Source: Carcharhinus amblyrhynchos (taxonomy: Eukaryota). From it: a stretch of 64,000 nucleotides of DNA. The notes beneath the pieces were generated by a model. The model saw only the letters and a list, made by a program, of their open reading frames with translations. It did not search any database and was not told the origin of the DNA. Numbering within the stretch: the first letter of the stretch is position 1; each line of letters begins with the position of its first letter. The stretch covers positions 63,550,001 to 63,614,000 of the forward strand of contig OZ336885.1 in assembly GCA_965287045.1 (NCBI GenBank), in the 5' to 3' direction. A program made the position numbers and the translations under genes. Positions 1,638-60,810 of this stretch are shown piece by piece.

Positions 1638-1673
1638 CTGAATCATTAGATATTTTCTTGCGAACTTCAGGTT
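1638..1673 (-). CDS. micro-exon 20 of the minus-strand coiled-coil gene, 36 nt, phase 1-1, (Q)PEVRKKISNDS
   Basis: ttttcttctttcacaccttag|aacctgaagttcgcaagaaaatatctaatgattcag|gtgagg; strong acceptor and donor; an internal AG gives an in-frame 27-nt form (1638-1664). Confidence 0.7.
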
Positions 1674-1825
1674 CTAAGGTGTGAAAGAAGAAAACTACTC
1701 GTGCATTACAGCACAGGAAATATTTTGCATAAAGACGATTTTCCCTTTCAACAAATGTTCATATTATTGACCAAAGTTGTACTGCTTTTAAAAACATAAG
1801 TATATCTCATGTCTCTTGAAATACA

Positions 1826-1826
<1 letters not shown>

Positions 1827-1875
<49 letters not shown>

Positions 1876-1877
1876 CA
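1827..1877. repeat. (CA)n microsatellite
   Basis: direct reading. Confidence 0.97.
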
Positions 1878-3784
1878 ATGTGTGGTAACGGTCATTATTG
1901 GCATTGAAAGTAGGAAGAGGAATGAACATTCTCCCCACCGAAAATATTTTCAAAAGCGAGTTAAACGTCATTGCTTATGCTTTTGTCGTCATAAGTTTAC
2001 AATTACAATACGATTGCATTGTCAACTGAATTGCAGAAAACCTTTGCAGTAAGTCTTTTCATTTCAAAATAACGGATGCAAAAAAAACTAAGGAGCGTTT
2101 ATGCTTAATGTATACATTAACATAGTTCAAATAAATAACTAAATAATGCATATCGAGCAATCCTGGATTCATTTTCTTTTAACCATCACGTTTATTTATT
2201 TTTAATGCCATTTTGTTGCATTATGTTAGAAACAATCCCTTCAGCAATGATTGTTGCGACGGTAGTGTTATATTGAGAGAGAGGGGGTTTGCTGAATCAC
2301 TCACAGCTGTATTTGCGTCTTAAAAGTAAAGTTGAAGATCTGTTAACCGATTCCAAGCCAGTTAAACTAAAAGTGGTCTAATAGATCTTAACTTCGCTAA
2401 AGAAGTTCTGGGGGCTGAATATGCTTCGCATATTAGCGAATACATTTTACAATGACAGAAACAATACGACACCTGTTGAATTGACAAAGAGGCTTAAGTA
2501 GGGTTCAACTGGGGGCAATAGGGAAGATGAAATTTAAACGGAATTAGTCAAGTATTTAGCTGTATCAGAGAAAAAGTCAGGTGTAGTGTAAATAGAAATA
2601 AAGCAATTGCAAATGAGGCGATCTGTGCTTGAACTTGATTTACTGGTATTAACTACTGCCACTCGCAGTACAGAATCGCATTCAGATGATACGGATTTTG
2701 TTGAATCTGAGAAGAAATTTAACAATGATACAGTACTAAAGGAATGGAACAGGATTGTGATCTATCCACCTCATAAAAAAAAAATGAAATTGCTACAGTG
2801 CCGCAATGACCGATGTACAATGAGGAGTCTCACAACCAGGTTAAACAATGGTTAAAGGCTCATCTCAGTCGCCAAGTACCAACAGAAAATAATGGAAGCA
2901 GAAGGTAAAACATGTAGTATAATCCAAAAAAATCAGTAATTGTTGAATTTTGGATGTGACAATGTTGTTTTAGAAGTGTTAGTTGCATTTATCTAACAGC
3001 ATTTCGTTAGAATATTGTTCTATTCAGTTTGTTAATAGTTAGTTAGGCTGTTCAGAGTTAGTCCAATAAATGGAGTGTGACATCTTGCTTTTGCAGACAA
3101 AGCCTCGGTGAGTTATTTTTTATTTAGCCAATAAAAGTTGCTAAAACGCAGAAAGTACGCCTGCTCACACATTCTTTAACATGTTATGAGGAAGCTACTC
3201 CTCTGTGAGTGGCTGAGGATTAGTTATCAGAGAGCAGATACGTCGCCCGCATCCCCCACAAGCCCTCACCACTGCACCCCCCCCCCCCCCCGATCATCGT
3301 GAACAAGAAGAATGTCGCAATTCCAGGGATTTTTGTCTTCATAATTAGACGTATTAAAAAATAGATTACATGCAAAATGAGAATGTTACTCCAAACAACA
3401 CATCTGGCAACGCAATGTGACTGGCATGTATAGCATATGGGTCTTTTTTTCAGTAAAGGAAAATATATCTTCCTCTGGACAGAAATGCAACAATTGTCGA
3501 TGGATGAAAATCCATGCTTGCACAAAACCATGAATTTCGAAGAGCTGCAACGTGTACTACGTTTGTGTCCTACTACGAGCAGCTTCAATGTAGTTTTCAG
3601 TGAAGAAGTATTTTTGAAACTGGGATGTATATGTACTTTGCCTGAAATCTCAGAACGTTATGACGACACCATTATCAGCTAAGTATTTTAAACCTTAAGC
3701 TGGGAGGAGAACATCAACCAATTCAAAAAAGGTATGGAGACGCATGATTATTGTCAACATCATTATTCCTTGCACAACATTATT

Positions 3785-4382
3785 CCCGCCTGTATACGGC
3801 ATTGGTGAGGCCGCAGCTGGAGTACAGTGCGCAGTTTTGGGCGCCGTACTTACGCAAGGATATTTTGGCCTTGGAGGGAGTGCAGAGGAGGTTTACTAGG
3901 CTGATGCCGGAGTTGAGGGGGTTGAGCTATGAGGAGAGGCTGAATAAACTAGGCTTGTAATGGTTAGAGTTTAGAAGAATGAGGGGAGATCTCATTGAGA
4001 CGTATAAGATGATGAATGGGATGGATAGGATAGAGGAGAGACTCTCCCCGCTTAGAAAGGACAGTAGGACTAGGGGGCACAGCCTCAAGATAAAGGGCGG
4101 GGGGCGGTTTAGAACGGAGTTGAGGAGGAACTTCTTCACTCAAAGGGTGGTGAATCTCTGGAATTCTCTGCCCGTTGAAGTGGTGGAGGCTACCTCGCTA
4201 AACATTTTTAAGACGCGGGTTGATGGGTTTTTGATAAGAGAGGGGATTAAGGGTTATGGGGAGAGGGCGCGAATGTGGATCTGAGCCACGACAGATCAGC
4301 CATGATCTTATTGAATGGCGGGGCAGGCTCGAAGGGCTAGATGGCCTACTCCAGCTCCTATTTCTTATGTTCTTATGTTCTT
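3785..4382 (+). mobile_element. young CR1 LINE, 5'-truncated 3' end (copy 1)
   Basis: ORF2 C-terminus LVRPQLEY...RRNFFTQRVVNLWNSLP with one premature stop; (TTCTTATG)n tail. Confidence 0.95.
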
Positions 4383-4627
4383 TTGTTCAACCCCAATGTT
4401 AGTCAATTTCAATCCACACAGAACTTTGGAGCATGTAAAGAACACATGAAACTAATGTATCCGGCCGGTGAGGACCCAAATGACCGGTTGTATTATTGAT
4501 AGTTTATTACCTTGAAGGGCAAAAAGACGGATTACGGTTTGCAATTAAACATTTCAATGCGGACTTCAGTCCTTTCAATTTGCTAATGAAATGTGCAATT
4601 TTCAATAGTGAACAGTTAATACATTAC

Positions 4628-4654
4628 GCGCAAGACACTGACTCAATCTGTCTC
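4628..4654 (-). CDS. micro-exon 19, 27 nt, phase 1-1, (R)DRLSQCLA
   Basis: ttttctgttcttttcttttacag|gagacagattgagtcagtgtcttgcgc|gtaatg; paralogous to 50160-50186 (DDKLNRCLK); donor weak. Confidence 0.75.
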
Positions 4655-5451
4655 CTGTAAAAGAAAAGAACAGAAAATGATTGAAGGAATGGAATAACAA
4701 ATTAAATAATTTAGATCCTGTACACAACAATGTACTCTATAATGTGTGAACTGATCGAAACTTGCAGACAATGTGACATAGAAAATGTGTGTTTCCAATT
4801 CGAGCATGGATTATCCATTATCAATATTTAACGTACTCACTGTCCATTCTAACTGCAACCTTTAATATGCATTCCATCATTGTGTACCATATATCCGCCA
4901 TTTAGCGTCAATCAATATGTCGTTTTTATTGCACGACTAGATGGCTTAATCAAAAATAATTGCCCAGGAATGTTATCCTGAATCTGCACAAATAATACTG
5001 TGAAGATAACTGTTCCAAAATAATACCAAAATGCACTCGCGTCTTTTTTTTTGTTTCCTCTCTGTTCTGCTCTTCTCAAGAGTTGGAAAAAATTTGTTTT
5101 TTTTTCAAGTCTATTTCGTTCGCCTTCCAGCCCCTAATTGGAACACTTATCCGTCGTAAAACAAAAATAAAGAAAATGACAGATAACGTTCAGTTCCCCC
5201 GACTTACAGAGTATCTTCAAACATTATCATGTCATTTCGTTTATACAAATATTATGCAATCAGTCGTTCACTTTATTTCGAGCAGACGAGCACAGCGTTT
5301 ACATATGTTCATTGTGACTGGAAATGCAGAAGATATTTACATTCTAACAATTAACAATGAAATTTAAGACAATCCCAAAAAATGCGTATATCGGAATTAC
5401 TGCATCAAGAGAAATAGTTGTCAATGTTTTTTTTAAAAGAACTATGCTCAC

Positions 5452-5478
5452 TATGTTCGGCAACCCTTGTCTTTATCT
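5452..5478 (-). CDS. micro-exon 18, 27 nt, phase 1-1, (E)IKTRVAEH
   Basis: tttatctttcag|agataaagacaagggttgccgaacata|gtgagc. Confidence 0.72.
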
Positions 5479-6773
5479 CTGAAAGATAAATATCAGCAAA
5501 ATTATGGGAAGAAAACAACTGTTGCAACAACAAAATGTCTGCTAGATTATCGTACATTGCCACGCTTGAGTCATACGCTTATTCAGGAAATGCAAATTAA
5601 ACGGACAAACTCAAATCAACTTAAGTAGTGGACGTGAGAACACACACACTGGCGGGAAGTGCACAGTTTCACACATACCCCGATATGAGCAATGGAGATA
5701 ATGGGAAAGTTGATGCTCGACGAAATTCCCGATTTAGAGCACCAGTCCAGTTCAGGGAATTCAAGAAATTACTTATTCGACTTAAAACTTGTTGTTTCCC
5801 AAGTGCAGAAAAATATTTTTCGGCAGCTTAGTGAGGCACTGATAAAATATTTCAGAAACTACACAACACTGTCAATGGCAAAACGACATTGTTTTGAATA
5901 CCAACATAAACATCATTGCTGACAGAAGCACAATGTCTAAACGTGAAAAAAAGGCAGATTAGATTACACTGCAACTGTTTTCCGCGACATCCACTCTTCA
6001 ACCCCTTGAACACAATATTCTAATGATTGTCCCAGGTTTCATCAGGTATGACGAACATTTTCGTAAATGTCACACTTCTTCACTCCTTCCCTGTAAAATA
6101 AGGAACAACTGTATAAAATATTGTCAATACGTTATGAGACAAGCGCCTTTTGAAAACAAAACAAAGATATAAGTAAGTGTCTCTGGGGAAAAAAGAAAAA
6201 AAGAATCAATGAATGGTAAATGGACAATGGACTTTTCATGCTCTGGTAGAACCCAATGTTTCAGTGTTAGGCAGTTCTGCAGTTAATAGGTCAGAATGGA
6301 AAGAGGAAAACCCAACTACATTTTTTTTTGTCAACACGTAAAGGTTTTCACAAGCCGCTAGCCTACTTATCTCCACAAATATTGGTGGTCTATTGAGTGT
6401 CAGGGCAGTAGAAACGCAAAATCATTTTAGGCAGTTAGGTTCGAGGTCATCTGTTCAATGTTGTCTAATATATTACGGTATGCATAAGTGTTTCTTTGCA
6501 GTTATTTATCAAGTTGTCCACGAGGAAACTTGAAACAAAATAATATTTATTTAATGGCCTTGTTAGGTTTGAACCAACATAACTGGCATAGTTTTTTTTT
6601 TACCAATAACAATACTTAGGCGTAGCAAAATAGAATTCCTAACAGCCAGCTAGTCCTGTTGATCCAAATTAAATTCCCCCACAAAGATATATGGACTGCC
6701 TTCGAGTAATGTAGAATGCCTTCCTGACACTGGTGTTTCAGCATTAACAAAAAACTTCTGGATTCTTTTTTTT

Positions 6774-6775
<2 letters not shown>

Positions 6776-6845
<70 letters not shown>
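6776..6845. repeat. (TG)n microsatellite
   Basis: direct reading, about 35 units. Confidence 0.97.
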
Positions 6846-6848
<3 letters not shown>

Positions 6849-9078
6849 TTTCCACACACACAAAAAAAACACTCACATACAGCAGAATCTCCATAAATGA
6901 GTGTTTTTTTTCTCGAAGTAAATGTGAGACTTCAACTTCAGAGAGGGGGAAAAAGAAGTTCATTCTCTGACTTAGAAAAACAACAACTGAGGATAAGTAT
7001 TCTGTGTATGCCCATCATCCCTGACGCATAAACACACGTTCCATTCATGACAATCCATCCCCACCCTGGAGCAATTATAGGGTAAAGGAATCGATCAACA
7101 TTGGATTCGATTGAACTCAGCATTCTTGCCATTAGAATCAATTATGTTGTTGTTGTAACAATGCAGGATGCCGGTATTCAGGCCAGCTCTGAGTGTCTAA
7201 ACCTGCCACAACAGATCCTGCAGAAAACATTTCTTACAAAAACACTATTGGCATACCTCTCACTTTAAAAAAAAACATCGTTCTGCATAAACGGCTTTTT
7301 TGTTTTAATTCTTCATGTTTGACACTGTCAGTAAGCTACAATGTATGCATTTCATAAAATCTAGATTCATTATTGACATTTTTGTGGGGAGCAATAAGAT
7401 TATGCGTAAACCATTTTGAACAGGGAGGCCAATTTTTGATGGGATAGGGATACCCCATTACACGGGGCCGACATTGAAGTTAAAATGAGGCAAGGATCAC
7501 ATCATTCATATCGCATCAGATTTAAAGAACAGTTCAGGTTTCTCCATGTCTCGCGCAAATTCTTAGGTAAACTAATACCTGCCAGCTGCACTCCAAACTA
7601 TTCATCACAAAAAAAAGCAACAATATTCTCCTGCACTCACTGTCACTGGAACTCAACGAACGTGTCATATGTATAGTATGCACATATTAAACATACAGGC
7701 CACACCGGTTAATAATTGCAAATTGCTGGTCTGCTGGAATAAAGGATTTAGAACCCACAATAAGCATGTCAGCGAAGCCTACAGATCTGTATGATAACGA
7801 TGATGAACATGATGAAGATGATAATGAAATTAATAATTACAATATTCGTAAACATATGCAATTCTGCACTCTTTCCATCCTTGCACTTCTGCAGACGATT
7901 TTCTTAGTAATACCAAATGTATTTTATTACATGCATAAACATGCATAATGCTATGTATATTTTTCAGTTGGGATTTATGTGTAAACAATTTTCACACGCG
8001 CCAGATATACGTATGTATTCCATAAAGAATAATTGATTTTTTTTGTGTTATAGAGTTGACCACTTATTGCAACATGTAACAATTATTAATTAATGGCGTC
8101 TATGCTAAAAATACATTAGCACCTGTTGCTGCACTTGTAATGCGCTGGGGTGACACTTAGGCTTCTCCCGTTTACAATCCCGAATTCGGCCATAATATGA
8201 GGCTAATACAAAATAATATTCCGAATTGATCGTGACAGCTTCAATTTTCATCATAATGTCGCAACAATTACAACAATATCTATTCTTCAGGCTTTCATCG
8301 TTTGCATTTGTAAACAATCCACGGAAGATTGAGAGCAAGTGAATTGTTTCCAGCTCAAGTGTGTACTGCTTCCGGATGCTCTAGGAAAATACAAGACATA
8401 TTGAAAAAAAAACATCTCTGACAGACAAAGTTGAAGAATTACAGAGGGATGCCAACAAACGTACAAAGAAGCCGTGAATAGAAGTACCGTAAGAATGATG
8501 TACGGCAAGAACGAACATTATATAAATCTGGGATGAACGGAGCAGTAAGCAGCATATGCCTGGAAACCAATGATTTGCAAAGGTTGGTGTGAATGTGTGG
8601 AGTAATGGGAATACAATTTAGCAACACTGAACCCTGCAGAAATCCAGGCCACCGTGTGCGTCAGCTATACAATTATCAGTAAAAGTTTAAAGAGTTATTG
8701 TCGCCTGTTGCAGTCAGAGGGCTTAGAGTGCAGTGATGGTAGATTGGTATGTCTGCACAACCTCCAAAATGAGTTGATTTCGACGGACAGGACATATTGC
8801 ATTTTGCGGTTGGGAGAGCCAAGAAGAAACGTGTGGAAGTTTCAAGGCTGCAAACGAAGATGAAAAATGTAAGTTATGTTAAATTTGTAAGAAGTTATCC
8901 CTGGAAATGTCTCCTCGGAACGGTGGAATCTAAATTAGAAATATCCAGGCATATGTTGAGAATGCAAAGAGATTTCTTTTTAATTTGTATTCTGAAATTG
9001 TGATAAAATATGTCATATATATTGAATATTCACGCATGATTTGCGATTAGGTGTAAACGTTTTGATGGCTATGCAAAC

Positions 9079-9114
9079 CTGCGTCTCGAAAATCTTGTTT
9101 TATTTTTGCTATAT
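9079..9114 (-). CDS. micro-exon 17, 36 nt, phase 1-1, (D)IAKIKQDFRDA
   Basis: catttctgtctcaatttcag|atatagcaaaaataaaacaagattttcgagacgcag|gtttgc; positional and length paralog of 51577-51612. Confidence 0.7.
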
Positions 9115-10301
9115 CTGAAATTGAGACAGAAATGCACAATTATTCCTTTGAAATATTGCCAGTGCAATAGTTGTCGGCATGTGCAATACTAATACATATA
9201 TCATCAGAGCGGACTCTGGCCGTTCGCTGATTATTTACTCTCGGGAAAATTAATCTGCCGTGTTCCAAAAGCTCAAGTAATACAATAAAAATGAATGGTG
9301 CTTAAGAGAACCAATTATAAATCTAATAAATGCGGTTTTTTTTTTGTAAATTCTTGAACACGTCTGTTCTGTCATTCATTTTCTCTCTCTCCGACTCTTT
9401 CTGAACCTTCCCTCATCCACTGCTCCTTTCCTCGACAGGTTATTAAATTGGAGACAATATAACAAATCTTTGAAGCGGCTCCTATTACACGGTTGTTTCA
9501 ATTCTCAGCCGGAATCCTGTCGAGGTCATTACGGTTGTAATTAAAATATGGCGTAGCACACTCTCCTTACAGTTTGCACGGCAGACACAACTTAGAATGC
9601 AGTTCAAGTGCGGCCTCGCCTGTTTCTTCAGGTTGGGCATTCACTTCAAAAATTATATAAGGCATTCGACTGAAAATTACAGTACATTAATTCTAATTGA
9701 TTAATTGCCATTGATTAGTGAATGTTGGGATGCATTTCTTTTAACGTCGCCAACTTTTTTTTAATAAATAGCGTTTTTACATTTCTTCAGCTCGTATTCT
9801 ATGATAGACAATAATTTCTTATTGATATGGACAGTTGAATAGATCAAGTGCTGGCGGTTCAACTCACAATTTTTGATTGTTGACTTTTGCAAACAAATGA
9901 ATTATTCACTTTGTCATTTTTTAGCAATCATGCAAGGCAGAAGTTTTTTTTTGCAGAGCAGCATTTGAGTTCGCAAAATAATTGAGGATTAATACAGACT
10001 AATATTCTTAACAAAGATAAATAGCATCAAAACAAGTATTTAACGATGATCGGAAATGCTTAGCGATTGATCAACCCGCAGACGGCATGATGCCATTACC
10101 TAGGAAATAAATATTGGAAACTATGGAAACACACAAATTGGCCTGGAACCTCTTCCACGAGCAGCAGCTTTCATTTCATAACAGGCACTGAACCGCTCAC
10201 CAGCCAGAAGTTTGCAGCTGTGCCTCTGCGTGGCTAAGACATTGCATGCATTCCAGATATTTGCGTTATATTTTGCACCAATAGCACTCAGAGTTCTGGA
10301 T

Positions 10302-13000
10302 GAACAAAGAAAAAAGAAAATTGCAGCATAGGGGCAGGCCTTTCGGCTCCACAAGGCTGTACGGACAACGCTAAACTGAAATCCCCTATCTTTCCCGGGA
10401 CCATACCCCTCTGTCCTCATCTCTAAATGTATTTGTCGAAAAGCCCCTGGCAACTAATTATTACATTTCCTTCCACCTCCTCCCCCAGCAGAGAGTTTCA
10501 GACAACCACCTCCCTCTGTGTAAAAAAGAAGCCTCACACATCTCCATTAAACTTATCCTTCACACCGTCAACTACCCCAGTAATTGACTCTTCCAACCGT
10601 GGAAAATCCTTCTGACTATCCGCATTGTCCACGTCCCTCATAATCTTCCAGACTTCTATCAGGTCGTCCTTCAACCTCTGTCGTTTCAGTGAGAACAAAC
10701 CAAGTTTCTCCAAAGTTGTCTCATGCTGCCTGGACGTCCATGCCAGGCAACATCCAGGTAAATGTTTGATGTACCCCCTACAAAGCCTTCACAGACTTCT
10801 GGTTGTGTGGCGACCAGAATTGAACAAGGTATTCCAAATGCAGTCTAACTGAAGTTCCCTAAATCTGTAAAATGACTTGCCAATGCTAAAACTCAATGCC
10901 CCGGCCAAGGAAGGCACGCACAACATATGCGTTCTTGAGAACTTCTCCACCTCTGTTGCCACTTTCAGTGACTTGTTTACCTCTACACCCAGATCCCTCT
11001 GCCAATCAGTACTCTTAATAGTTCTGCCGTTTTCTGTATATTTCCTATCATTATATGACTTTTCAAAATGCGTTAAGTCGCATTTTTCCGGATTAATCTC
11101 GATCGGCCATCTCTCCTCCTAAGCCTCCAACTGGTCTCTACCCTGCTGTTTCCCCTGACGTTCGTCATTACTGTCCACAAATCCCCTAACCTTTGCGTCA
11201 TCCACAAACTTACTAATCAAACCAGTTGCATTTAAAAAAAAACATTTCGATATATTTGAAGCAGCAAAGGACCCAGCACTGATCCACAAGGTACGCCACT
11301 TGTCAAAACCCTCTATTTTAAAACACACTCGTCCAGTGCTACTGTCTGTCTTCTACCACTGAGCGCGTTCTGTTTCCACCTTGCCAGCTCACCTCTGATT
11401 ACATGTACCTTCATCTTCTGCAACCATCGCCACGAGGAACCCTGTCAGAAGCATGACTGGAGTCCATGGAGACAACACCCACTGCTTTAACTTCATCAAT
11501 CATCTTTGTCACTTCCTCGAATAACGCAATATGTTCGCGCGACACGACCTTCCCTTCGCAGAATCATTTTGCCTCTCACCAATATGTCCACTTCGTTCCA
11601 AGTGCGAGTAAATCCTGTCTCGGAGAATGTTCTCCAATAATTTCTTTACCACTGACGCAAGCCTCACTGGCCCGTAATAACGTGGATGATCCTCACTATC
11701 TTTCTTAAACAAAGGAACAACATTGTGTATTCTTCAATCCTCTCAGACCCCCCTTTAGTCAGTGAGGATACCAATATTTTTCTTAAGGCCCCAGGATTTT
11801 TTTTTCTTGCCTTTCGCGTATTTTGTGACATACTGCATCAGGCCGTGGGGACTTGTCTACTTTAATGTTTCTCAAGAACCCGAATACCACCTCCTTTCTG
11901 ATCTCAACATGACCCAAACTGTTTACACACCCTTTCCAAGATTCGTCATCCACCAAATCCTTCTCTTTGGTGACTAGTGGCACAAAGCCCTCAAATACCT
12001 CGTCCGTTTTCTCTGGCTCCATGCATAATTTCCCTAGTCTGTCCTTGAGGGGGACAACCGTCTCCTTCTCTATCCTTTTGCTCTTTATACGTGTGTAAAA
12101 ATCCTTGGGATTTTCCCTAATCCTGCTGGCCAATGATATTTCATGATAACTTTTCGCCCTCCTCACTCTTTGTTTAAATTTCTTTCTATTTTTTTCTTGT
12201 ATTCCACACTTGTTTCATGCACTTCCAGCTTCCTAGTTTTAACAAATGTTTTCTCTCTCTCTTCTCTCTCTCTATCTCTCTCTCTCCCCTTGACTGGGCT
12301 CACAATATCACTCGTTATCCAAGGTTCCCAAAACTTGCCATACTTACCCTACATCCTTACCAGCATGTGTCTGAATCTCTGTCAACCTTAACTTGAATGC
12401 TTCCCACATGCCAGATGTTGATTTGCCTCGAACATCTGCCACCAATCTGCATTCTGCTGTTCCTGCCGTCTACTGCTGTAATTAGCCTTCTCCCAGATTA
12501 GCACCTCAATTTGATGAATACTCTTTTCCTTATCCATCAGTACCTTAACACTTGCTGAATTGTGGTCTGTGTTCCCAAGCTGCTCCCTTACTTAAACGTC
12601 GACAACCTGGCTCATTCCCCAATTCCAGGTACAGTGTGGTCCCTTCCCTGGTTGGAATATCTGCATACATTTTCAAATACATACAATTTCAAGAACCCCT
12701 CCGGGATGCTTTTTACAAACTCTGCCCCATCCACAACCCTAGCGCTAAGTGAGTCCCAGACAGTATGTAAATTGAAATCTCCCACTACCACAACACTGTT
12801 AACTTTACCAAATTTACCACTTTGCCAAAATCTGCACTACACATTTTTTTCTATCTCCTGCTGGCTGTCGGGTTGCCTCTCGTAAACGCCCAACATTGTG
12901 ACTATACCCCTCTTATTCCTGAGCTCCCCCATATTTCCTCACCTTACGAGCTCTCCATGCTATCTTCCCACAGTACTGTTGTTACATTCTCCTTAAGCAG
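10302..13000 (-). mobile_element. old degenerate CR1 LINE (endonuclease-RT remnant plus 3' tail)
   Basis: frameshifted fragments RIRENPKDFY, KVDKSPRPD, YGPVRLASVVKKLLE, ISKFVDDAKV; tail gaacaaaga...caggcctttcggc at 10302. Confidence 0.9.

Positions 13001-21299: not shown

Positions 21300-21331
<32 letters not shown>
21300..21331. repeat. (CA)n microsatellite abutting the CR1 5' end
   Basis: direct reading. Confidence 0.95.
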
Positions 21332-49443: not shown

Positions 49444-49470
49444 CATCGGTTTGGCATCTTTTGCTCAGTG
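49444..49470 (-). CDS. micro-exon 10, 27 nt, phase 1-1, (A)LSKRCQTD
   Basis: cgcatctttgcag|cactgagcaaaagatgccaaaccgatg|gtacgt. Confidence 0.75.
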
Positions 49471-50159: not shown

Positions 50160-50186
50160 CTTTCAAACACCGATTCAACTTATCAT
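50160..50186 (-). CDS. micro-exon 9, 27 nt, phase 1-1, (D)DKLNRCLK
   Basis: ttatatttgcag|atgataagttgaatcggtgtttgaaag|gtgatt; paralog of 4628-4654. Confidence 0.8.
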
Positions 50187-51001
50187 CTGCAAATATAATT
50201 AATGCATATTTAGCAGCTTTGACAATAGTTGCATCTTTGGCATATGGTGAGCTAACAATAGACAGATAATCTTCAAATTGCAGAACAAGTAAGCAGCGAA
50301 ACGAAAGGGATTGTCTAGTGCACAGTTAATATTTCGCCTCCATTGTCAGTTATTTCCACAGCATTTTCTGAATAGCGCACTCATTATCAGACATTTTGCA
50401 ACCACCATATAAAGCGTTACACCTCACTGGCAGAAGGCGATGCCTAGCATCCCAGGAACCATTTGAACTTTTGTGCAAATCCAAATTTAGATGATGTTAT
50501 TCTATTTTCTTTTCCTCTGACATTTTATCAGCTTTAATGAACGACACACTTGTTGTAATATATCAGCAGAGGCAATGCGCAATGCTTACAATTTACAGAA
50601 GTCAAGTATGATATTAGTTTCAGGAGAATATACACATGAGCCAGAACGTAATGTAAAGATCTTCTGCACTCTTGTTAATATGTTTAAAACTGTCATCGAA
50701 TCCGGAATTACTGGAGAGAAATGACATTGGAAGCATTTATATAGAGACGCGCAACCAACAGAATTGCCAGAGCAATGTGCGGGTAATTTAATAGCCAAAT
50801 CTCGGAAAGAAGAATTCGAATAACAGAATCGTTTCCAGACCTCCAGAATAACCAACACCATGACACATGTCTCCAAGTAAGGTGTATTTTTTTTTAATAT
50901 AATTGCAGGTTACTGTGAGTAATTCAAATAAACTCGTATTCCCTAAAATATAGGTCTGTACATTGCAGTAACCACTTGGGCGCTGCTTTAAGACATTTAA
51001 C

Positions 51002-51028
51002 CTCGTTTCTTTATTTTTGTTGTTGTTT
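51002..51028 (-). CDS. weak candidate micro-exon 8, 27 nt (39 nt if the upstream AG is used, extending to 51040), (E)TTTKIKKR
   Basis: right length, phase and slot to pair with EIKTRVAEH, but poor acceptor (aaaatcag) and donor (gag|gttaaa). Confidence 0.3.
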
Positions 51029-51241
51029 CTGATTTTGATTCTGCATCATAAGCGGACACATCTGAACTAATTCTCTGAACTAAACATATTTTCTTCTGAA
51101 TGTTTTTGTTTATTTTGACGAACCTAACAACCGCATCTTGCGCAATTAAAATGTCCAACAAGCCTCGAAGTCTCCAATCAAACTAAATGTTACTTATGCA
51201 TGAAAGCACAGTCGTGAATCATTTCTGAAATTCGTGTTTTG

Positions 51242-51285
51242 TAGAATATAGAACACTACAGCACAAACAGGCCCTTCGGCCCATA
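51242..51285 (-). mobile_element. isolated CR1 3'-tail fragment
   Basis: tagaatatagaacactacagcacaaacaggcccttcggccca. Confidence 0.75.
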
Positions 51286-51576
51286 ACTGGCGCCGTTTCG
51301 TCATCCCGTCATTCAGAGTCGGTTGAATCATTACTCCGTGTTATCCAGGTAATTTCTGTTCGTATTTACTTTCAAAAAAAAACAAAACAAAAAGACTGTG
51401 GCTCCAGTTCAGCAGCACTTTTATTTTGAATTTCATTCTGAGGAAGTGTAATGCTGGCCGCTGTCATACGCTCTGTAGGCCAACAACATACTTTTCTGGT
51501 AATTTGCCGAAACATAAATGTTATATGTTATGGTCTCGCTTCGAAATACATGGCACAGAATGCCCTTATTGTTCAC

Positions 51577-51612
51577 CTGTTTCCTTGAGAATATTTTTCG
51601 TGTCGTTTAGCT
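51577..51612 (-). CDS. micro-exon 7, 36 nt, phase 1-1, (E)LNDTKNILKET
   Basis: cttttatttctgtattcag|agctaaacgacacgaaaaatattctcaaggaaacag|gtgaac. Confidence 0.8.
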
Positions 51613-53683
51613 CTGAATACAGAAATAAAAGTTGGCTTACATGAACTTGCGAAGGTTAGAAACGAAAGTTACATCTTGAAAGATCAGCCGAAGTAAGGGC
51701 TAACATATTGTTCCTCTAGTTGCACGTCTAATTATTATTACATTGTGCCCCTTTAAATAAAGTTTCCTCCAAGCGCAGAATGTGAAAAAAAAAGGAATTC
51801 ACCACCTGATTCCAAATCGTATCCTTCAAAGAAATCGCAAGGGCATGGTGAGTTTCTTTGCGAGGATCCGTTTTTTTTGCAGTACCATTAGAGACTGGGA
51901 CCAACATGGCGAATCAAATGATATATGTAAATGTTAACACTGTCGAAGCATATTACTTGAAAAAAAATGTTAAACTCTGTTTGAAATGCGAGGCAATACA
52001 TCGACTTTGCATGTTTTGGGAAGTTGGCAATGCATCACCACACCCCGTCCATTACGTCTGCGTCGAAACGCAGAACGGGCATTGCACACAGCCCTGCCTT
52101 CCGGCACATCCCCTTAACCCCAAACATTTACCATAATAAATCCAAGACTACACAACGTTGCAGATGAAAGCATTTGTTCCTCGGATAAGTGCAGGTAAAC
52201 AGCAGAACTTTTGACTGTGCAGTGAAATTGGATCGGCTGGACAACGCGCAGAGACGGTACCGATGTGCAAACAAAACGCTGAGTTGAAGAAAATCAGAAT
52301 CTCAACAGGGTCTATCACATTCTGTGGTACTAATGATAACTCTCAAGCTCAGTGCTGCTAATGAAACAGCAAAAGAGGCAATGAGAACCCCCTCTACAAT
52401 GTTCATTCAAAATATATGAATTCAATCTGTTGCAATGATGCAGATGGATGACTCATGATGCATAAAATATTTTGGTCATACAATCGATATCACTAAGTAA
52501 ATAACATCTGTTATTACTCATCGTGCTGCTTGCAAGACCTGCAAATTGGCTACCTTGTTTCCCATATTCCATGAGACGTACTGCACTTCACTGACTGCAT
52601 ATCGCAATGGCGAAATTGGACGTACAGAAAATCGATCCCAGTATTTACTACATCGGCGTTCCAATTGATATGGGTTTTTTTTTCTCAGTGAGTCCCCACT
52701 TCTGCGAATATGCCAGAAGCACCTGGCTGAATTGATATCCATATTTTAGTTTCACTGAACGTTTTTTCTTTGCATCTTCATTTTCACAGGAAACAAAATA
52801 ATACGTTTGAAGCATAAAGCAAAAGAGTAACTAGTCTTCATATAGGTCAAATACGTATTTTCCTGTTGGACTTAAACCTGAAATAATTTATGTATTACCT
52901 AAATACTTTAACTATACTTAAAAGAAGAACTAAATTATGCAAATAGGACGACAATCCCTGACCTGCACATAGTATCAAAGTTATACCTCAGCCAAATTGT
53001 CCAAGTGCCTACCCTTGTTTCTTGTCCTGAGCTAGTCTCTTTATTCATTTTGTAAGCGCATACCTTAGGCCTCCTTGATGCTCCATTTCAGCAATTTTTT
53101 TTTCATGTTCTGAAGGGTTTCATTCCTCGTCAATTCAATTTCAGTAAAATGCATTTTTACATTTTTTTATATCGAAACGTCAGTCTCACTTATCAGGATT
53201 CAAAGGAGAAATTGTACCTTTTTCACGTGTCTTAAGCTCTTTGTCTGTGAGGGGGGAAATGTTGCACCAAAGTAGGACAATGTAAAATGCCAATTAAATT
53301 TAGATCAAATGATTTCTCTTATTGTCTACACTAAGTGCAACACTGCGAACCAGAGTTAGAAATATGCGGATTAAATTGTTATTGAAAGTAATGCTTGTCA
53401 CATTATGGGGAGCAATGTATCAGTGTCATTGCACTTCGACAGTCAGACGCAATATTCAGTTCTGATCATCCCAGATTTGTTGGAACACAGGTCAGAGCCC
53501 CTGTAGGGTTCATTTCAGTAAACGAGCCTTCATCGATAAATGGAAATACTGCGTAAGAAAACGTCCTCGAACACATAATGTTTTGTGCGCCCATCTAAGA
53601 TGTTTATTTCTTAAAGCACAGCCGAACTGTTGGTCCATTTGCAGATTTCCAAGGCACTTTTGTTATGATCCAGTTTTTTTTTT

Positions 53684-53970
53684 AGTTTATTTGTTAATGA
53701 AACGAGTGAGCTTACATCAACACTGCAACGAATTTATTGCGAAATAATCTCTGGTCATCACACACCGGTGCCTGCATGTGTATACGGTAGGGAAATTAAT
53801 TCATTAAATACGTCACACAACACGTATTTCGGATCGTGGGAGGGGACCAGAGAAGCCAGAGGAAACCTACCCACAGCCAGGGAGAACGTTCAGACTGTGG
53901 ACAGACTGTCATCCAAGATTGAAATTGAACCTGTTCCAAGGCGCTCTAAGGCAAAAACGTTCTCCATGCT
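53684..53970 (-). mobile_element. V-SINE (same tail family as 694-993), degenerate
   Basis: reverse-complement tail agtttattt...gcttacatcaacactgcaa and V domain ccagaggaaacc...gggagaacg. Confidence 0.78.
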
Positions 53971-54019
53971 CTAGGCTAGATCTACGATCTTGCAACCGCG
54001 GAATGTATGCATTACTCAC

Positions 54020-54046
54020 CATAACTGTCAAAGAATTTTCCAGGAC
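54020..54046 (-). CDS. micro-exon 6, 27 nt, phase 1-1, (C)PGKFFDSY
   Basis: ttttattcaccaattag|gtcctggaaaattctttgacagttatg|gtgagt; needed to avoid a TAG at the exon 5/7 junction. Confidence 0.7.
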
Positions 54047-54533
54047 CTAATTGGTGAATAAAATTCTCGATGTAGTGAATGCGGGCTACGGTTCAATATA
54101 TTTGGAATTATGAACATGTAATTCCGAGAAATAATTATGTTGATATTCATTGACAGCAATGTTTTATGCAAGTATTCTGGACGGAATGTAACTGTGTACG
54201 CAAACTAAAATACTGTGCCACCTGTTCAAATCTGTGCGTGATGGAATTAAATTCCTTGAAAGAATTTGAACGAGATCTGTCGATAAAATATATCTACTAT
54301 CCAATTGTGTATTTTTTCGGATGGAATTAGATATTTAATCTTCAAATATAACTTCCAGAAATGCGTGAAATTCTTTACATTTCTTATATTCATGACATGC
54401 TTTATTCAACAGACAATACGACCAGGAGCCATGAATACTGCGCAAGCAGTATCTTCACAACTTGCAACGGGATACCATGAAATGCAACAAAGTTGCAATA
54501 TGTTAAACAAATCTCAGTGGAAACGATTCTTAC

Positions 54534-54569
54534 ATTTGTTTTCTAAGGCTTTCTTTAATTTGCGGTTTT
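54534..54569 (-). CDS. micro-exon 5, 36 nt, phase 1-1, (E)NRKLKKALENK
   Basis: attttctttttcatattccag|aaaaccgcaaattaaagaaagccttagaaaacaaat|gtaaga; paralog of 28121-28156. Confidence 0.9.
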
Positions 54570-55628
54570 CTGGAATATGAAAAAGAAAATAAATCTTCAA
54601 ATGTGAAATCCGATATCATATCAGTGAAATTAGTATCATATCAGCGATTCTGGTGTCAAATTCTGAAACGGATTTTAGGACCAGAATAGCAATATCCAGT
54701 TTTCAATCTATCTGTTTAGACAAATCATATTATTTCTACCTGCACAAATCGTTCTCTTGCACGCTAAGGGTAGAATACCAACTCACTTTCACGCGCAAGT
54801 ACAGGTGAGACATAAATGACAACACAGCCATAAAATAAACATTTTTATCACTTGCATATTTCAACCCCAGTCCACAGCATTCGCAAATCAATGAAATGGG
54901 GAAGAAGTTTAATTTATGTTGTCATTAATGCAACAGAAACCTCAATTCAGTGACCTTAAAATTGTTCACAGATAAAGACAACTAACGATAGTGATGATGC
55001 CTCGCAAAACATCATTATACGTAAATGCAAGTTCAGCAATGCATTCCCTCCAGGAAACGAATAAATTATTTATCGATGCCTAAAGCGACACATAGCCATT
55101 CTTCTGACTTGTATTGACATTATTATTTTGTCCTTATGTTCAAATACGCATCCTTCAAATTATATACCCATTTGTTATGTCAGTATCGAAAAAATCGTGG
55201 TTGTGCATTAGGCGACAAATTCAAACATCGATGGGCAACGAAAATGAATTATACCATCCCTAAAGTAACGGCTATTGATCTGGATTCGACGGGACACAGC
55301 ACTTCTCTGTAACATTACGCCAACAGATAATAAAATGCCCACTCTAAGCAAATTAACTTGTGAGTAATATGGCATTTTTTTTTATTGTCCAGTGTTTCAG
55401 CAAGTACATACAACTCATCCCTTCTCATTGGGCACAGATTGATAATGTTTTCGCCGCTTCTTCCGTTGAAATCCTCATTTGCTGATGCATTAGTTTCATT
55501 CGCAAAATAATTTACACTGCTTTATATATTGAGCAGCGTTGGTAAGAAACCATTTGCACACACAAAATGATATCAGTGTAACTTTGGAATTGGAGCAGGG
55601 ATTTGGATGTATAAGATATTTCAGTTAC

Positions 55629-55655
55629 CTTTCTCTTTTGGTAGTAATAATGAAG
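55629..55655 (-). CDS. micro-exon 4, 27 nt, phase 1-1, (T)SLLLPKEK
   Basis: ggcatttctttcaag|cttcattattactaccaaaagagaaag|gtaact; paralog of 42523-42549. Confidence 0.85.
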
Positions 55656-55710
55656 CTTGAAAGAAATGCCACAAGCAAAGTGATGGTCATCATAATTATC
55701 ATCAAAATTG

Positions 55711-55901
55711 NNNNNNNNNNNNNNNNNNNNNNNNNNNNNNNNNNNNNNNNNNNNNNNNNNNNNNNNNNNNNNNNNNNNNNNNNNNNNNNNNNNNNNNNNN
55801 NNNNNNNNNNNNNNNNNNNNNNNNNNNNNNNNNNNNNNNNNNNNNNNNNNNNNNNNNNNNNNNNNNNNNNNNNNNNNNNNNNNNNNNNNNNNNNNNNNNN
55901 N
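55711..55901. other. assembly gap (191 N)
   Basis: run of n. Confidence 1.
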
Positions 55902-58900
55902 GTTTCAGAACAAAATTAGTATTTGATTATGCATTAGTACCAAGTCAATCTGACCCATGGACTTTGATAATTCAAAGGCTTAGAGAATTATTCACATGTT
56001 ATTCACTAAAAAGCGGCAATAATAGGACTGATTCAGCCGACATGGTATATTTGTCGCTACAGAAAACGGGAGTGCTAAACTCATGTTTTGTTAAATCGAC
56101 CAAAAACCTATAATGTGCTCACCATCAAGTCTTCATCCCAATACCATTAATCATTGCAAACAATTTCGTGGAAAAAAATAGTAAAGACTTGTTGATTAAT
56201 ACTAATGATGAGGATAACAATAATAATATGATTTTTGTTATCTACATCATTATTGTCTTCATGTAACACCTTTTCTTTTTACATTGTAACATTTTATGCA
56301 TGCAACTACACTCATCTGTCGTTGATGAAAGGCTTCTTTTGTTTAAAAAAATATATAAAAAGATGGGCAGTTGTCAGCCATTCTGTTGGGTGACATGTTC
56401 CACTATTCAGCTAGTTTGCGGACGATCTCCATCAAAGGCATGTTTATTGCTGCTCATATAACTAATGATACGTCTTTATTATCATTTACAAAAAAATGGA
56501 GACGCATCTCTCTTTTGAATGCTTCCAGGATTGAACACCTACAGCCCTCCCAATCGAAGAAAAGAAAACACAAACTGCTTCTCATTGAAAAAAAAATGAC
56601 ATCTCTGTATCTGATAATGTGGATCATGCGTCTAATATTTACAAACAGGGCCTGCGTTATTCGACAGACTCATCACCAGAGCCAAGTGAAAATATGGTTT
56701 GGTACTAAATTATGTTCCCTCATTTATCAAAATGTGCCAGAATAAATGACCTGCCTCTGAACCCTGCGCCAAAGAAGGCATGACAGGCATATTCAGTCAG
56801 AATTTATTGCCCTTCCATTTATGCAAAATGTTTTCCTACTGAAGATATCATGCAAATTTACTGATATGGTTTTATCTGTTATGTCCCCAAGTCTCTGCAC
56901 AGTTGCTGAACCTACTTAATTTAGTCTGAATTTCACCTGAAATGAAGTCAACCATGGTATTTTCCTTCTCCCTTGCCGGTTTTTGACACTGAATCATGAA
57001 CACAATTGCCTCGATATCATCAGAAAGCAACACTTGCCAATTTCTTGTGCGCGAATGCATTTTCTGCATTAGAAACCCCCACCCACCACCCCCGCCCTCC
57101 CCTCCCCACCTGCACCCCCAATTAATTCCACATTATTTTCCAACACTCGGATACAAATCCAATCAACATGTATCATTGAAAAGTATCATCCCTAAATTGC
57201 AGAATTGTATTGCTTTCAAGCCTGCACCAATAGTGGCGTTAACCATGACCTAATTGCTTAAAGCATTATACTTGCTCTGCTGGTCAACCACAGTGAATAG
57301 TCAAACAATCAAATAAGCGCGTTTTAGAGAGTTTGAAAAATTGGGGAAAAAATCTGCATTTTGTTTTCGGCTGGGATTTCAGAGATATCAGAGAAATTAT
57401 TCTTGGGAAGTGTTTTTCGGAGTATGTACAGTCAAATTTTGAGGGATTTTGTTTTTCGTTTTCGTGGGACGGGAGTGCCAGTAGATGCCATACTACATAA
57501 TTCCCATTTCCTCTCCAACCAAAAGCTTTGTCAGTCCATTTCCGAGGGAACATAAAGGACAGACACATTGTTGTGAACCTCGTGTCAACGTAGTTCAGGC
57601 TAAGTAAATGTGTCATTTCTAAGTCGGCCAATGTTATGAGTGAACGTTCTATATTATTAGAAACGTTAACAATCGTCCCATGGTCACGATAAGATGTTTA
57701 ATTTCGGATTTAAATTATTGTGCTTTTTCACGATTGAGTGGAAATGATGTGAATTTTTGGATTCGAACTGCATTGAAAACACCAGTATTATATGGCGTCA
57801 CCTAATCGGGGTGTCTAGGACCATCGGAGGATAAGACAACACTCGTGTATTGCAGTTTTCATGAAAAGCTAATTGTCTGAAAAAGTGATCAGTCTCCATT
57901 TGTTTTTTTATATAACCCGAACAAGCTGAGGAGATTCAGCTGTCGAACAAGTACAAGGCTGATATGGACCCTTTTATGAACTGGAAAAATTCTGATTATG
58001 GACAGAAGGCCGGAAGATCTTTGTAACTTCAGTCATGTCCTAATAACTTAGTCACGCACGATGGATGGGCAAAATTGTCAAGTGTTGTCACTACATCCTA
58101 TGCAATTAGCATCTTATAGTTAAGATCCTTTTAAGAACCTTTCCATTGTTTTCCTTCAAAGCATGGCACCAACAAATTAGTTGCCGGCAAAATGTTTAGA
58201 GATAATGTATTTTGCCCTAACTCAACATTATTGATTCAAATTGTGAATATCTGTGGCCAAGAACTGATCTTTCCACTTTGCACTTCATCAGGGCCTGCAT
58301 GGATGAGAATAAATTATATATTCTGTAACTATTTACTCTAATAATTTCTATTTTGACAGTCACTTCAAACATAATTACACTGTCGAGTTGGAATCGTCGG
58401 TTAAGATTGTCTGAAAGTGAAAATGCACTGTATGGACTGGTTTCTGCTCATTTACGGGAAAATCAAAGCAGACTGAAGTTTTCAACGCAATCGCTTAACA
58501 TTTATAAACTTACGTTGTTACTGCCAAACTCTCCCATTATTTTGTGGGTCAATGTATCACACGCTTAGACAAAGTTGCAGGAAGTTCCATATCGTAGATG
58601 CATGTATAGCAGTTTTTTTTTTCTTCGCGAGTTTCTCGGTGTTGTTCAGGAACATTTCACCAACAGATGATTTTTTTTTAAGTTTGGGTATCTTATGCTC
58701 TGTGTGGAAGCACAAGCTCGTACCACTTGCGGAACAAAACCAGCGTTCTGACAACAACTTCGAGAACAATAATTTAAACTATGCAAAGTAGGTCCTGAAA
58801 TGCGGAGCCCATCATTGCAGCTCATTTGAGGTTATATGGATTCCGATTGGTTACCCTCTGGAGCAACACCGATTCCATATTCTATCACGTTCCCACTACA

Positions 58901-59162
58901 CCACTGATTAATCCACCATTTTTTTTCCACATGCAGTGTCCTTAGTTCGCAAGATTCAGAAAAAGACCTCATAGCATCTGATGGGATTATACTTTTGACA
59001 GTCGTCCAGTTACTGCACACATGTTTATTCTGCAACGTTGCATTATTCACTAAGTCAGAATCCGTGTGCCTGACCAAGGGTACCGCGACATCTTGGCAAG
59101 TGATTTCATGTATTGAATCTATTAAAATATATTTTTGTGCATTCGATGTTTTCAACATGTTA

Positions 59163-59458
59163 CTTTTAATATTGGCGTCACAAGCAGGCTTTCATTTGCG
59201 CTCAATTTTAGTTACTGTGAAAAGCCTCTCGTTTCTGCACTCCAGAGCTTTCGTAAACTCTCTGGTAGAATTAGCATATCCAATGCATCCAACCAGAAAG
59301 TCTTTTGGACGGTGGAAGTGAATCTATCGAATCAGAGGAAACATACACACGCATGGGAAGAACGTGCAGACTCGGCACAGACTGAGACCTGCAAAGAATC
59401 TGACTTGTGTCACAGGTGTTCTTTGGCAGCAACGCAAACCACACTGTGCCGTGCTGCT
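59163..59458 (-). mobile_element. V-SINE (same tail family as 694-993), degenerate
   Basis: gtcacaagcaggct...gttactgtgaaaag tail; gaagaacgtgcagactc V domain; head ccacactgtgccgtgc. Confidence 0.78.
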
Positions 59459-60012
59459 CGAGCTACCATGTTGTCCTACGTTTAAACCATCTAATTTAGC
59501 ACAGACGGAACAACCATCATCTACCTTTTTTTTGGTTATCATTTACGTTAATTTTGTCTTTAGGCTCAGTGCACCATTTTTGTAGTCACACGCTAAAGCA
59601 TTTACTGACGCTGATTGTTTTCTAAAATGTTTTATCTCACGTATTATCATCGGAAAGGAACTGATTTATTACTCACATTTATACATGATAAATTAAGTTC
59701 ATACTCCTCGAAGGTTAAAAACGACGGCTGGAATAGTATGCAAATTAAGTTCGAAAGGTATAAAATGAGCAAAGAAACGATCACGTACAGCCCAATCAGT
59801 GAGAGTTAGTGTCTATTTCAACATGGTGAATATGTTTCGGAACATATCCTATCTAGAATTAACCCTGCAATCATTCATGTGTTAGTTGAACAATTTTTTT
59901 TTGGGGGGGGGGGGGCTTAAGTTCTCCTGGTGTATTTTGATTACAAATACATATTTTATTACACTGTAGAGTACCACTCTCCGCTGCGAGGGAATTACAA
60001 TATGCTACTTAC

Positions 60013-60039
60013 TCAATTTCTCAACAAGATTCTCGAGTT
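60013..60039 (-). CDS. micro-exon 3, 27 nt, phase 1-1, (E)LENLVEKL
   Basis: aattgtttccttgcag|aactcgagaatcttgttgagaaattga|gtaagt. Confidence 0.88.
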   Translation of the reverse strand, partial: NSRILLRN

Positions 60040-60224
60040 CTGCAAGGAAACAATTATGAGTTGGAACTTTTCAGCATTGTAACACTAATAATCATGTGGC
60101 TGTGCCCAACGAAATACCTTGCTACATCCATTCATTTTGCATAAGTCCATTGACTTGTTGTGTATGACATTTCATTTGATATTTGCAGAGTAAGGAGCAT
60201 GCATTATCAGTAGTTTATAAATCC

Positions 60225-60277
60225 AGCACACAGAGACGCCCAATTTGAGTCAGCAGCGCTAACTGCTGTGCCACCGT
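60225..60277 (-). mobile_element. SINE tRNA-head fragment
   Basis: gagtcagcagcgctaactgctgtgccaccgt is the reverse complement of the SINE head. Confidence 0.6.
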
Positions 60278-60632
60278 TTTGACTTTTATATTCCTCAAAT
60301 AAACCTTCATCCTTGGAACCCCGAAATAGTTGACCTCCGCTTTGCTGCGACCAATAACATTATCGGGGTCTCTCGAATGGGGACCGAAGCAGTTGTCTGT
60401 AATTCTCCAGTCTGCAATGCAATGCAAATTCTACATTTCTTTCCATAAGCACATGACTGGCTACCTGCTGCCCTGTATTTTAACCCACATTTCGAATTTT
60501 CACATTGAAATGGAGCGGTGCAGCTGAGTTAATACTTCTAATATTGTGCCGAGAACACCATGTCTGAGCCTTTCAATAAAACGAGAAATGCAGGTGGAAC
60601 ATCCTGTTATTGTTTTAAGTATGTTTTCTCAC

Positions 60633-60659
60633 CTTTGTATTTATTATCGAAGTCATCGC
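60633..60659 (-). CDS. micro-exon 2, 27 nt, phase 1-1, (R)DDFDNKYK
   Basis: attattgcccatag|gcgatgacttcgataataaatacaaag|gtgaga. Confidence 0.8.
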
Positions 60660-60783
60660 CTATGGGCAATAATTAATGAAATGTTATCGATCCACTCGAA
60701 ACGGAGAACAAATCTAAAAATGTTGATGTTGATGTTTCAAGGCAATATGAGAAGTCAAACGTAAAGGAGAGGCATATACTTAC

Positions 60784-60810
60784 GTTTTTCACGACGTGTT
60801 AGTTCATTCT
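60784..60810 (-). CDS. micro-exon 1 (first seen in the window), 27 nt, phase 1-1, (x)NELTRREK
   Basis: gatttattgtag|agaatgaactaacacgtcgtgaaaaac|gtaagt. Confidence 0.78.

Follow-up and report, generated by a model that had tools for sequence, protein, structure and literature searches.

How does a coiled-coil rod built from many exons of only 9 or 12 codons become long, and what does it carry at its end? We address this question in a 64,000-nucleotide (nt) stretch of the 2.9-Gb genome of Carcharhinus amblyrhynchos (assembly GCA_965287045.1, contig OZ336885.1, hereafter C16, positions 63,550,001-63,614,000; "the window"). Its minus strand holds a series of 27- and 36-nt segments that a first-pass annotation had read as two tandem copies of a 10-exon super-unit of about 96 amino acids (aa). 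We find that 19 of these segments very likely serve as phase-1 exons of a single cartilaginous-fish gene of ~530 kb, here called W, and lie close to the 5' end of its rod. The joint explanation that fits best, and which we consider probable, is that these are 19 exons of a single ~530-kb gene for a B30.2-capped coiled coil of ~1,110 residues, likely with a signal peptide, whose rod grew by the copying of small exon blocks. An exon triplet in the window would be one old and eroded example of such copying. Only three or four of ten exons are recognisably duplicated, not a whole ten-exon unit. Throughout, positions outside the window are given relative to its start (+/-), and exons are named by their upper coordinate.

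The micro-exons and their gene

The micro-exons lie on one strand and share one splicing phase. Those of the window are flanked by AG and GT (GC in one case) and each begins and ends in phase 1. Across 464 kb, an untrained splice scan returned 28 phase-1 candidates of 27 nt and 27 of 36 nt on the minus strand, against 5 and 4 on the plus strand, and no more than nine candidates of any other length. A scanner trained on minus-strand seeds found 105 exons on the minus strand of 864 kb and none on the plus strand. Seven of the ten peptides quoted in the first-pass annotation occur in the six-frame translation, on the minus strand and at the expected places; the remaining three can be read only across the splice from an upstream exon that ends in A, which fits the terminal A of exons 60039, 46423 and 5478.

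The curated window set comprises 19 minus-strand exons with 189 codons, free of stops when joined, and 14 of them have a colinear partner in an upstream paralog, here called U. Only 10 of the 171 possible joins among these exons make a stop, all from the two exons that end in T. Because skipping 53244 or 9114 makes stops, these exons are tied to their upstream neighbours, and not all exon skips would be harmless.

The whole window (1..64000, minus strand) forms part of the intron and exon interior of W, which starts at about +130 kb and finishes with a B30.2 exon at about -401 kb. The exon array itself runs from about +92 kb to -395 kb and ends at the phase-1 B30.2 exon (C16:63148851-63149342; Pfam SPRY, E 8e-11; best PDB match BTN3A1, E 5e-14). 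Its 108 scored exons (61 of 27 nt and 47 of 36 nt) join to 1,112 aa without a stop. From the genomic sequence we infer that the B30.2 exon is spliced onto the rod, and W is predicted to encode a coiled coil of ~1,110 residues capped by a B30.2 domain. No second B30.2 exon lies within the array (864 kb searched), so both blocks of the proposed super-unit belong to one gene, and the idea that they come from separate genes is rejected. A search for RNA that contains the B30.2 exon returned none, and the one sequencing run listed behaves as DNA that is ~97% alike; neither result has a bearing on expression.

Two points count against this assignment. First, five of the 19 window exons have no paralog partner, among them all four that follow 28156. 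Second, splicing, exon order and the 5' end are predicted here from the genome and not read from a transcript. One stretch of N inside an intron of the first block could also hide an exon.

A family of cartilaginous fishes

W belongs to a cluster of six close B30.2 paralogs spread over 6 Mb of C16 (60.4 to 66.4 Mb). Among them, U extends from ~65.44 to 63.74 Mb, with 64.41-65.39 Mb covered by sampling only. In an IQ-TREE phylogeny, a quick tree of 62 of 154 domains with a midpoint root and no bootstrap, the six paralogs share one branch with nine relatives (SH-aLRT 99), and this branch contains no sequence with Ig or TRIM domains; within it, W, U and the 66.4-Mb gene group together. This branch includes chimaera members, and its origin is therefore placed before the split of sharks and chimaeras.

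Among 1.84 billion representatives, the best single-domain B30.2 matches are models from skate, catshark, basking shark, electric ray, epaulette shark, whale shark and Callorhinchus. These chondrichthyan models are named TRIM-like, A33-like or butyrophilin-like, yet lack RING and Ig domains. RefSeq models of the same B30.2 clade (TRIM39/58/69-like, A33-like, BTN3A1-like and nuclear-pore anchor-like; for example XP_055510696.1 from skate, XP_042192744.1 from Callorhinchus and XP_038668997.1 from catshark) likewise combine a coiled coil with B30.2 and no RING, but are mostly far shorter than W, bear automatic names, and include none that we recognise as its ortholog. RefSeq isoforms of the relatives differ by cassettes of 9 residues, and in one case of 6. 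The database models shorten and misname the members of the cluster, and the host gene family is more notable than the duplication that drew attention to it.

Other searches were less productive. Word-index protein searches gave no match among longer proteins for the W B30.2 exon and only self-clusters for the skate and chimaera queries. The exons of the window could not be located in the Callorhinchus protein: a 24-exon stretch gave no blastp match, and the rod downstream matches it at E 9e-8. We did not find the family described in a literature search whose coverage mostly excluded subscription papers.

Known proteins share parts of this layout. Butyrophilins (BTN/BTNL, including BTN3A1, the best structural match) have a heptad stretch followed by a terminal B30.2 domain, which is cytoplasmic according to PMC4046983. 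W differs in its rod of more than 100 exons in place of a few heptads, in having no detected Ig exon, in its separate B30.2 branch, and in being likely secreted rather than membrane-bound. Nor does the W cluster lie on the major histocompatibility complex (MHC) class I contig: all 80 MHC class I matches fall on contig C9 and none on C16, in a search that covered class I only.

Chicken BG, or zipper protein, is like W in having a long coiled coil made of many tiny exons, whose number expands and contracts (PMC4046983). As described there, BG has an Ig-V and a transmembrane exon, coiled-coil exons of 7 or 8 codons, and no B30.2 after the tail. In W, by contrast, the exons have 9 and 12 codons and form a four-exon unit, the gene spans ~530 kb and ends in B30.2, and no Ig-V was found. 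The 21-nt (sometimes 24-nt) exons of the BG tail differ from the 27- and 36-nt exons of W, and 21-nt runs occur only in the 5' parts of the paralogs. TRIM proteins (RING, B-box, coiled coil, B30.2) differ in that RING and B-box exons were not found in the W region.

In teleosts, salmon XP_045550229.1 and tarpon XP_036374758.1 have the same apparent layout (a hydrophobic start, a long coiled coil and a terminal B30.2 domain) under uninformative names. Since their B30.2 domain lies on another branch, this layout may be convergent. Guinea-pig enterophilins also combine long heptad rods with B30.2.

The 5' end and the location of the protein

W has a candidate signal-peptide-like start. A putative 84-nt phase-1 exon at +127,741 completes such a start with a first exon at either +129,300 or +134,973, and a plus-strand paralog, P, has a similar signal-like exon pair near 65.49 Mb, the second exon of which matches only itself in the genome. 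A rule modelled on such starts passes 4 of 69 candidates, two of which are the W and P pairs, and also passes the skate and chimaera models of the same B30.2 clade. For the 61.08-Mb gene, a looser look adds one candidate just under the donor cut (2.7 against 3) and a second, single-exon candidate with the strongest donor of its zone. By this crude rule, candidate signal-peptide exons stand at the 5' ends of three of five paralogs. Pooled two-exon signal-like starts are enriched in 5' zones (2/7 against 2/76 elsewhere, p=0.034), and more so with the looser donor cut (3/7 against 3/76, p=0.007). An open frame at +140 kb was considered as a possible 5' end and set aside.

Several observations speak against secretion. 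The rule is a crude one, drawn up with the W and P candidates already in view, and it passes only two of seven other database proteins with signal-like starts, missing five. Applied unchanged to the head-to-head zone of two further paralogs, it passes none of 14 candidates; no candidate of the 63.07-Mb gene passes, and that of U fails. In addition, W has alternative first-exon candidates. On balance, the genomic evidence makes it a little better than even that the rod protein is secreted.

The principal alternative, which we regard as a real though lesser possibility, keeps the rod and its B30.2 end but places them inside the cell, either in the cytosol or as the cytoplasmic tail of a butyrophilin- or BG-like membrane protein whose true 5' exons were missed. 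It agrees with the cytoplasmic B30.2 of butyrophilins (PMC4046983) and with the cytoplasmic heptad micro-exon tails of BG. The failure of the preset signal test on two paralogs favours it as well, as does the lack of a signal-like stretch at the start of most RefSeq models in the clade, though these models are apparently 5'-incomplete. The exons that a membrane or TRIM-like protein would need were, however, not detected. Among 39,347 open stretches (1.47 Mb, both strands), no profile match to Ig-V, RING or B-box was found, and a profile of 37 TRIM N-termini gave nothing better than E 0.23 over the same 1.47 Mb. An Ig motif scan of 864 kb around the array was blank, and no Pfam domain exceeded the cut-off in 58 of the 217 longer frames of the W 5' zone. 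Six phase-1 candidates of that zone, a set that does not cover other phases or weak splice sites, include no transmembrane-like exon. The enrichment of signal-like starts in 5' zones likewise stands against an intracellular protein.

If the signal-peptide reading is true, a normally cytoplasmic binding module, B30.2, would be displayed extracellularly on a rod of more than 1,000 residues. A broader proposal, to which we give slightly less than an even chance, is that the cluster represents a family of secreted B30.2 rods that is the chondrichthyans' own and belongs neither to the butyrophilins nor to the TRIM proteins. Its genes of 0.5-1.7 Mb would encode a signal peptide and a coiled coil of 21-, 27- and 36-nt modules, with exon copying, loss and cassette splicing acting as a molecular ruler for an extracellular B30.2 head.

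Extent of the duplication

An offset of ten exons is real, although much of the claimed super-unit is not recovered. Of 14 lags compared in the window, lag 10 scores best (p=0.0005, 2000 order shuffles; ~0.007 corrected), and this signal comes from four pairs: 60039/46022, 55655/42549, 54569/28156 and 50186/4654. The first-pass annotation had stated that exon n matches exon n+10 in length and sequence. Scoring each pair at the protein level against all confident exons of the same length, we find that pairs 3/13, 4/14, 5/15 and 9/19 of its numbering are reciprocal best matches (z 1.7, 2.5, 3.7 and 2.1, respectively). Pairs 1/11, 2/12, 6/16, 7/17 and 8/18 are at background (z -0.7 to 0.7, with 0.04 for 7/17) in a list resembling that of the annotation, whose complete exon list was not given and whose slots 8 and 16 (51028 and 16104) were guessed; exons 10 and 20 differ in length.

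The proposed length pattern, 27-27-27-27-36-27-36-27-27-27, is not repeated in that form. The ten exons from 60039 to the one before 46022 have lengths 27-27-36-27-36-27-27-27-36-27, so that the spacing is 99 aa. They include a 36-nt exon with a GC donor, 47530, that the annotation had missed and that is 83% identical to a GT-donor exon in U. The second copy, from 46022 on, is fragmentary: it has seven exons only, and those after 28156 run 36-27-27-36. If real, a candidate of 39 nt at 51040, which scores 12 and has no paralog partner, would change the offset to 11; besides this, there is no well-supported exon between 51612 and 50186.

Exon-level local alignment finds one significant block in the window, a triplet of exons (60039/55655/54569 against 46022/42549/28156, p=0.003). 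With 27-nt exons classed by slot (B follows a 36-nt exon, D precedes one, and C lies between them) and 36-nt exons as slot A, this triplet reads C-D-A. As the annotation had noted, the introns are not similar: exon flanks do not rise above background in any of eight within-gene pairs, and blastn of one block against the other gives five matches, of which one is the 54569/28156 exon pair and the other four fall away from the curated exons.

The expectation that more units lie outside the window was borne out by a third copy of the triplet at +88398/+86722/+85549, 24 kb upstream. In a ranking of 39 triplets, which did not use U candidates 570861 and 511192, this copy comes third, surpassed only by the paralog's two orthologous triplets; its own ortholog in U comes fourth. 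The third copy alone is not significant in exon-level local alignment. Upstream candidates 74372 and 71614 (scores ~8) were left out of the curated list, and the spacing of the third copy is therefore given as 7-9 exons, compared with 10 for the other copy pair and 9 in U. We conclude that the ancient intragenic block duplication proposed for the window is supported, and so is the placement of both blocks in one gene: neither a B30.2 exon nor any further domain exon separates them. What was called a super-unit is an ordinary, eroded duplication of an exon block, smaller than claimed.

Could the resemblance have arisen with no block duplication at all, through slot-type similarity within a four-exon repeat and one exon-level gene conversion between 54569 and 28156? 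Slot types do exist, and against the whole-gene list (108 exons, 40 shuffles) the triplet block reaches only p=0.07, which also counts against our own conclusion. The 36-nt pair, moreover, is 81% identical within W, with three gene-type sites against one ortholog-type site. Against this, C-D-A triplets that occupy these slots elsewhere have much lower scores (0.43 for 49470/48804/47530, compared with 1.46-2.35); U also carries the same three copies in the same order. We therefore consider an origin without block duplication unlikely.

Slightly less probable still is a fixed super-unit of 10 exons and ~96 aa, present in two complete tandem copies. Nebulin and titin contain super-repeats of this kind, higher-order repeats that arose by copying exon blocks. 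Lag 10 is the best lag not only in the window but also in U at +500 to +862 kb (p=0.001); U has a run of nine consecutive pairs with this offset, which the four pairs share here. A fixed unit is nonetheless hard to reconcile with six of ten slots at background or of unequal length, with the seven-exon second copy, and with a spacing that varies between the copies and between W and U. The offset of 10 in U is in addition the sum of shorter units (3+4+3), whose own offsets are significant too. Unlike that of nebulin and titin, the higher-order period of W is loose and eroded.

A probable shorter four-exon repeat

The offset of ten likely reflects a shorter repeat. In U, at +665 to +745 kb, offsets of 3/4, 6/7 and 10 are all significant, each exceeding all 100 shuffles, and we read this ladder as that of a repeat of three to four exons. 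When slot classes are learned exclusively from the stretch of U that W lacks, they predict 12 of 16 slots in or near the window (p=0.002). This suggests that the ancestral local unit was likely A(36)-B(27)-C(27)-D(27), or 39 aa, and that the offset of ten in the window is likely AB + ABCD + ABCD, that is, 2+4+4 exons of this older 36-27-27-27 unit.

The 36-nt exons have hydrophobic residues at codons 2, 5 and 9 (79-87% of 100 exons), and the 27-nt exons have one at codon 4 (63% of 133). Because of these positions, a 36+27 pair corresponds to three heptads, as the first-pass annotation had calculated from its 21 aa; its arithmetic is correct, although neither the four-exon unit of 39 aa nor the spacing of 99 aa is a multiple of 7. 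The hydrophobic period of the joined peptide peaks at 3.54, close to the 39/11 of a heptad with a stutter. Two results weaken the case for the four-exon unit: local alignment of the window against the stretch of U that W lacks is not significant (p=0.10), and at the available length a period of 3.54 is not cleanly separable from 3.5.

Other parts of the rod show other offsets. Downstream of the window, W switches to an alternation of 36- and 27-nt exons (lag 2, p=0.001), and between -61 and -196 kb it has a longer ladder of 8- to 13-exon offsets with 19 pairs. Judged from these patterns, block copying is general in W and has no fixed period.

Paralogs and the history of the rod

W and U align exon by exon from +88 kb to the end, with a score of 865 against 364-436 in ten order shuffles. 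The ratio of nonsynonymous to synonymous divergence (dN/dS) is 0.35 over 67 exon pairs. For the 19 pairs between +28 and +89 kb it is 0.37, and the B30.2 exon gives 0.38, with a dS of 1.0-1.1 throughout. U carries all three triplet copies in the same order, and quartet sites favour the ortholog type (10, against 4 of the gene type and 0 crossed). For both reasons we place the duplication before the split of W and U. The paired paralogs offer a direct record of a coiled coil rebuilt exon by exon under purifying selection.

Two caveats run counter to this history. The dN/dS values are biased low, as the pairs were chosen by similarity, and the 36-nt pair (54534-54569 and 28121-28156) is 81% alike within W, compared with 64% and 69% to U. 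This pair may have been homogenised later, possibly by exon-level gene conversion across 26 kb.

A plausible mechanism can be outlined on this basis. Every exon is symmetric, with phase 1 on both sides and a length divisible by 3, so that the frame would stay intact when blocks are copied or lost. Before W split from U, a segment of some 8-10 exons containing C-D-A would have been copied twice; later gains and losses of single exons would account for the spacings of 7-10 exons and for the fragment that remains of the last copy. The rod as a whole would have grown by repeated copying of small exon blocks, the triplet being one old and partly eroded example. Its product could be a long oligomeric spacer of ~165 nm, counting 0.15 nm for each residue, and would present B30.2 binding heads, most likely outside the cell. 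Exon number and cassette splicing would tune the length of this spacer.

That W is instead an alternative 3' half of U, whose upstream exons would splice past their own 3' half, or a 5'-truncated relic, is very improbable: the alignment does begin abruptly in mid-U, which continues over 1 Mb further 5', but candidates for a first and a second exon of W lie at +129-135 kb and +127.7 kb, the open frame of W shows constraint similar to that of the B30.2 exon, and the splice would need an intron of ~490 kb across the terminal exon of U.

The abrupt start of W-U similarity at +88 kb leaves W without over 1 Mb of the 5' rod of U. W seems to have a short start of its own, and 30-nt exon candidates occur at +120860, +116864 and +103451. 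The first rod exons of the 61.08-Mb gene and U are clearly alike (C16:62.145-62.154 and 65.418-65.423 Mb, minus strand); both genes then show runs of 21-nt exons, unlike W. Genes of the family occur in two head-to-head pairs (C16:62.18-62.22 and 65.42-65.53 Mb), with 5' ends at most ~35 kb and at most ~110 kb apart.

Window exons and minor observations

The curated exons of the window are listed in Table 1. Candidate 49951 was dropped (score 6.5, no paralog partner), as were the guessed slots 51028 and 16104 (scores 3.0 and 3.5, no paralog partner) and the 18-nt 9798, which makes a stop after 28156.

Table 1. Micro-exons of W in the window, in order of transcription. Slots are as defined in the text; first-pass numbers are those of the earlier annotation; percentages are nt identities.
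Length (nt)	Position	Strand	Slot and role	First-pass number	Score	Paralog partner	Remarks
27	60784..60810	-	B		10.6	63%	
27	60633..60659	-	C		12.7	at similar short spacing	after 124-nt intron
27	60013..60039	-	C, triplet copy 1, first exon	3	19.8	67%	z 1.7 to 46022
27	55629..55655	-	D, triplet copy 1	4	7.5	70%	z 2.5 to 42549
36	54534..54569	-	A, triplet copy 1	5	30		81% to 28156, z 3.7
27	53218..53244	-	B		12.6	none	if skipped, stop at 54569-51612 join
36	51577..51612	-	A	7	23.3	61%	match to 9114 not above background
27	50160..50186	-	B	9	20.9	67%	z 2.1 to 4654
27	49444..49470	-	C		10.5	67%	
27	48778..48804	-	D		14.9	74%	
36	47495..47530	-	A		20.5	83%, GT donor	GC donor; absent from first-pass length pattern
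27	46397..46423	-	B by position		11	48%, weak, colinear	
27	45996..46022	-	C, triplet copy 2	13	27.8	70%	
27	42523..42549	-	D, triplet copy 2	14	21.4	81%	
36	28121..28156	-	A, triplet copy 2	15	24.4	69%	
36	9079..9114	-	A	17	12.6	none	joins of 28156 to 5478, 4654 or 1673 make stops
27	5452..5478	-			9.6	none	
27	4628..4654	-	B-like sequence	19	11.8	none	best match 50186
36	1638..1673	-			16.4	none	

At 9772-9798 on the minus strand of the window, an exon-like segment has a good acceptor and no donor at 27 nt; it is possibly a dead exon. Fragments labelled by eye as LINE-type reverse transcriptase lie on the minus strand at 19.9-21.4, 38.9-39.6 and 44.2-44.7 kb of the window and form part of the long introns of the second block.

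Within U, one 27-nt exon has near-identical copies with splice sites, inverted nearby (+219011 on the minus strand; +221361 and +221570 on the plus strand), pointing to a recent local duplication. An intron of U also holds an endogenous retrovirus-like element (C16 ~64.252-64.259 Mb, minus strand; +709 to +702 kb), in which long open frames, by eye gag-, pol- (with a dUTPase-like end) and env-like, are separated by stops. Elsewhere in the genome, contigs C9, C41, C46, C53 and C73 carry over 140 more distant B30.2 exons in dense arrays, many of them on the MHC class I contig.

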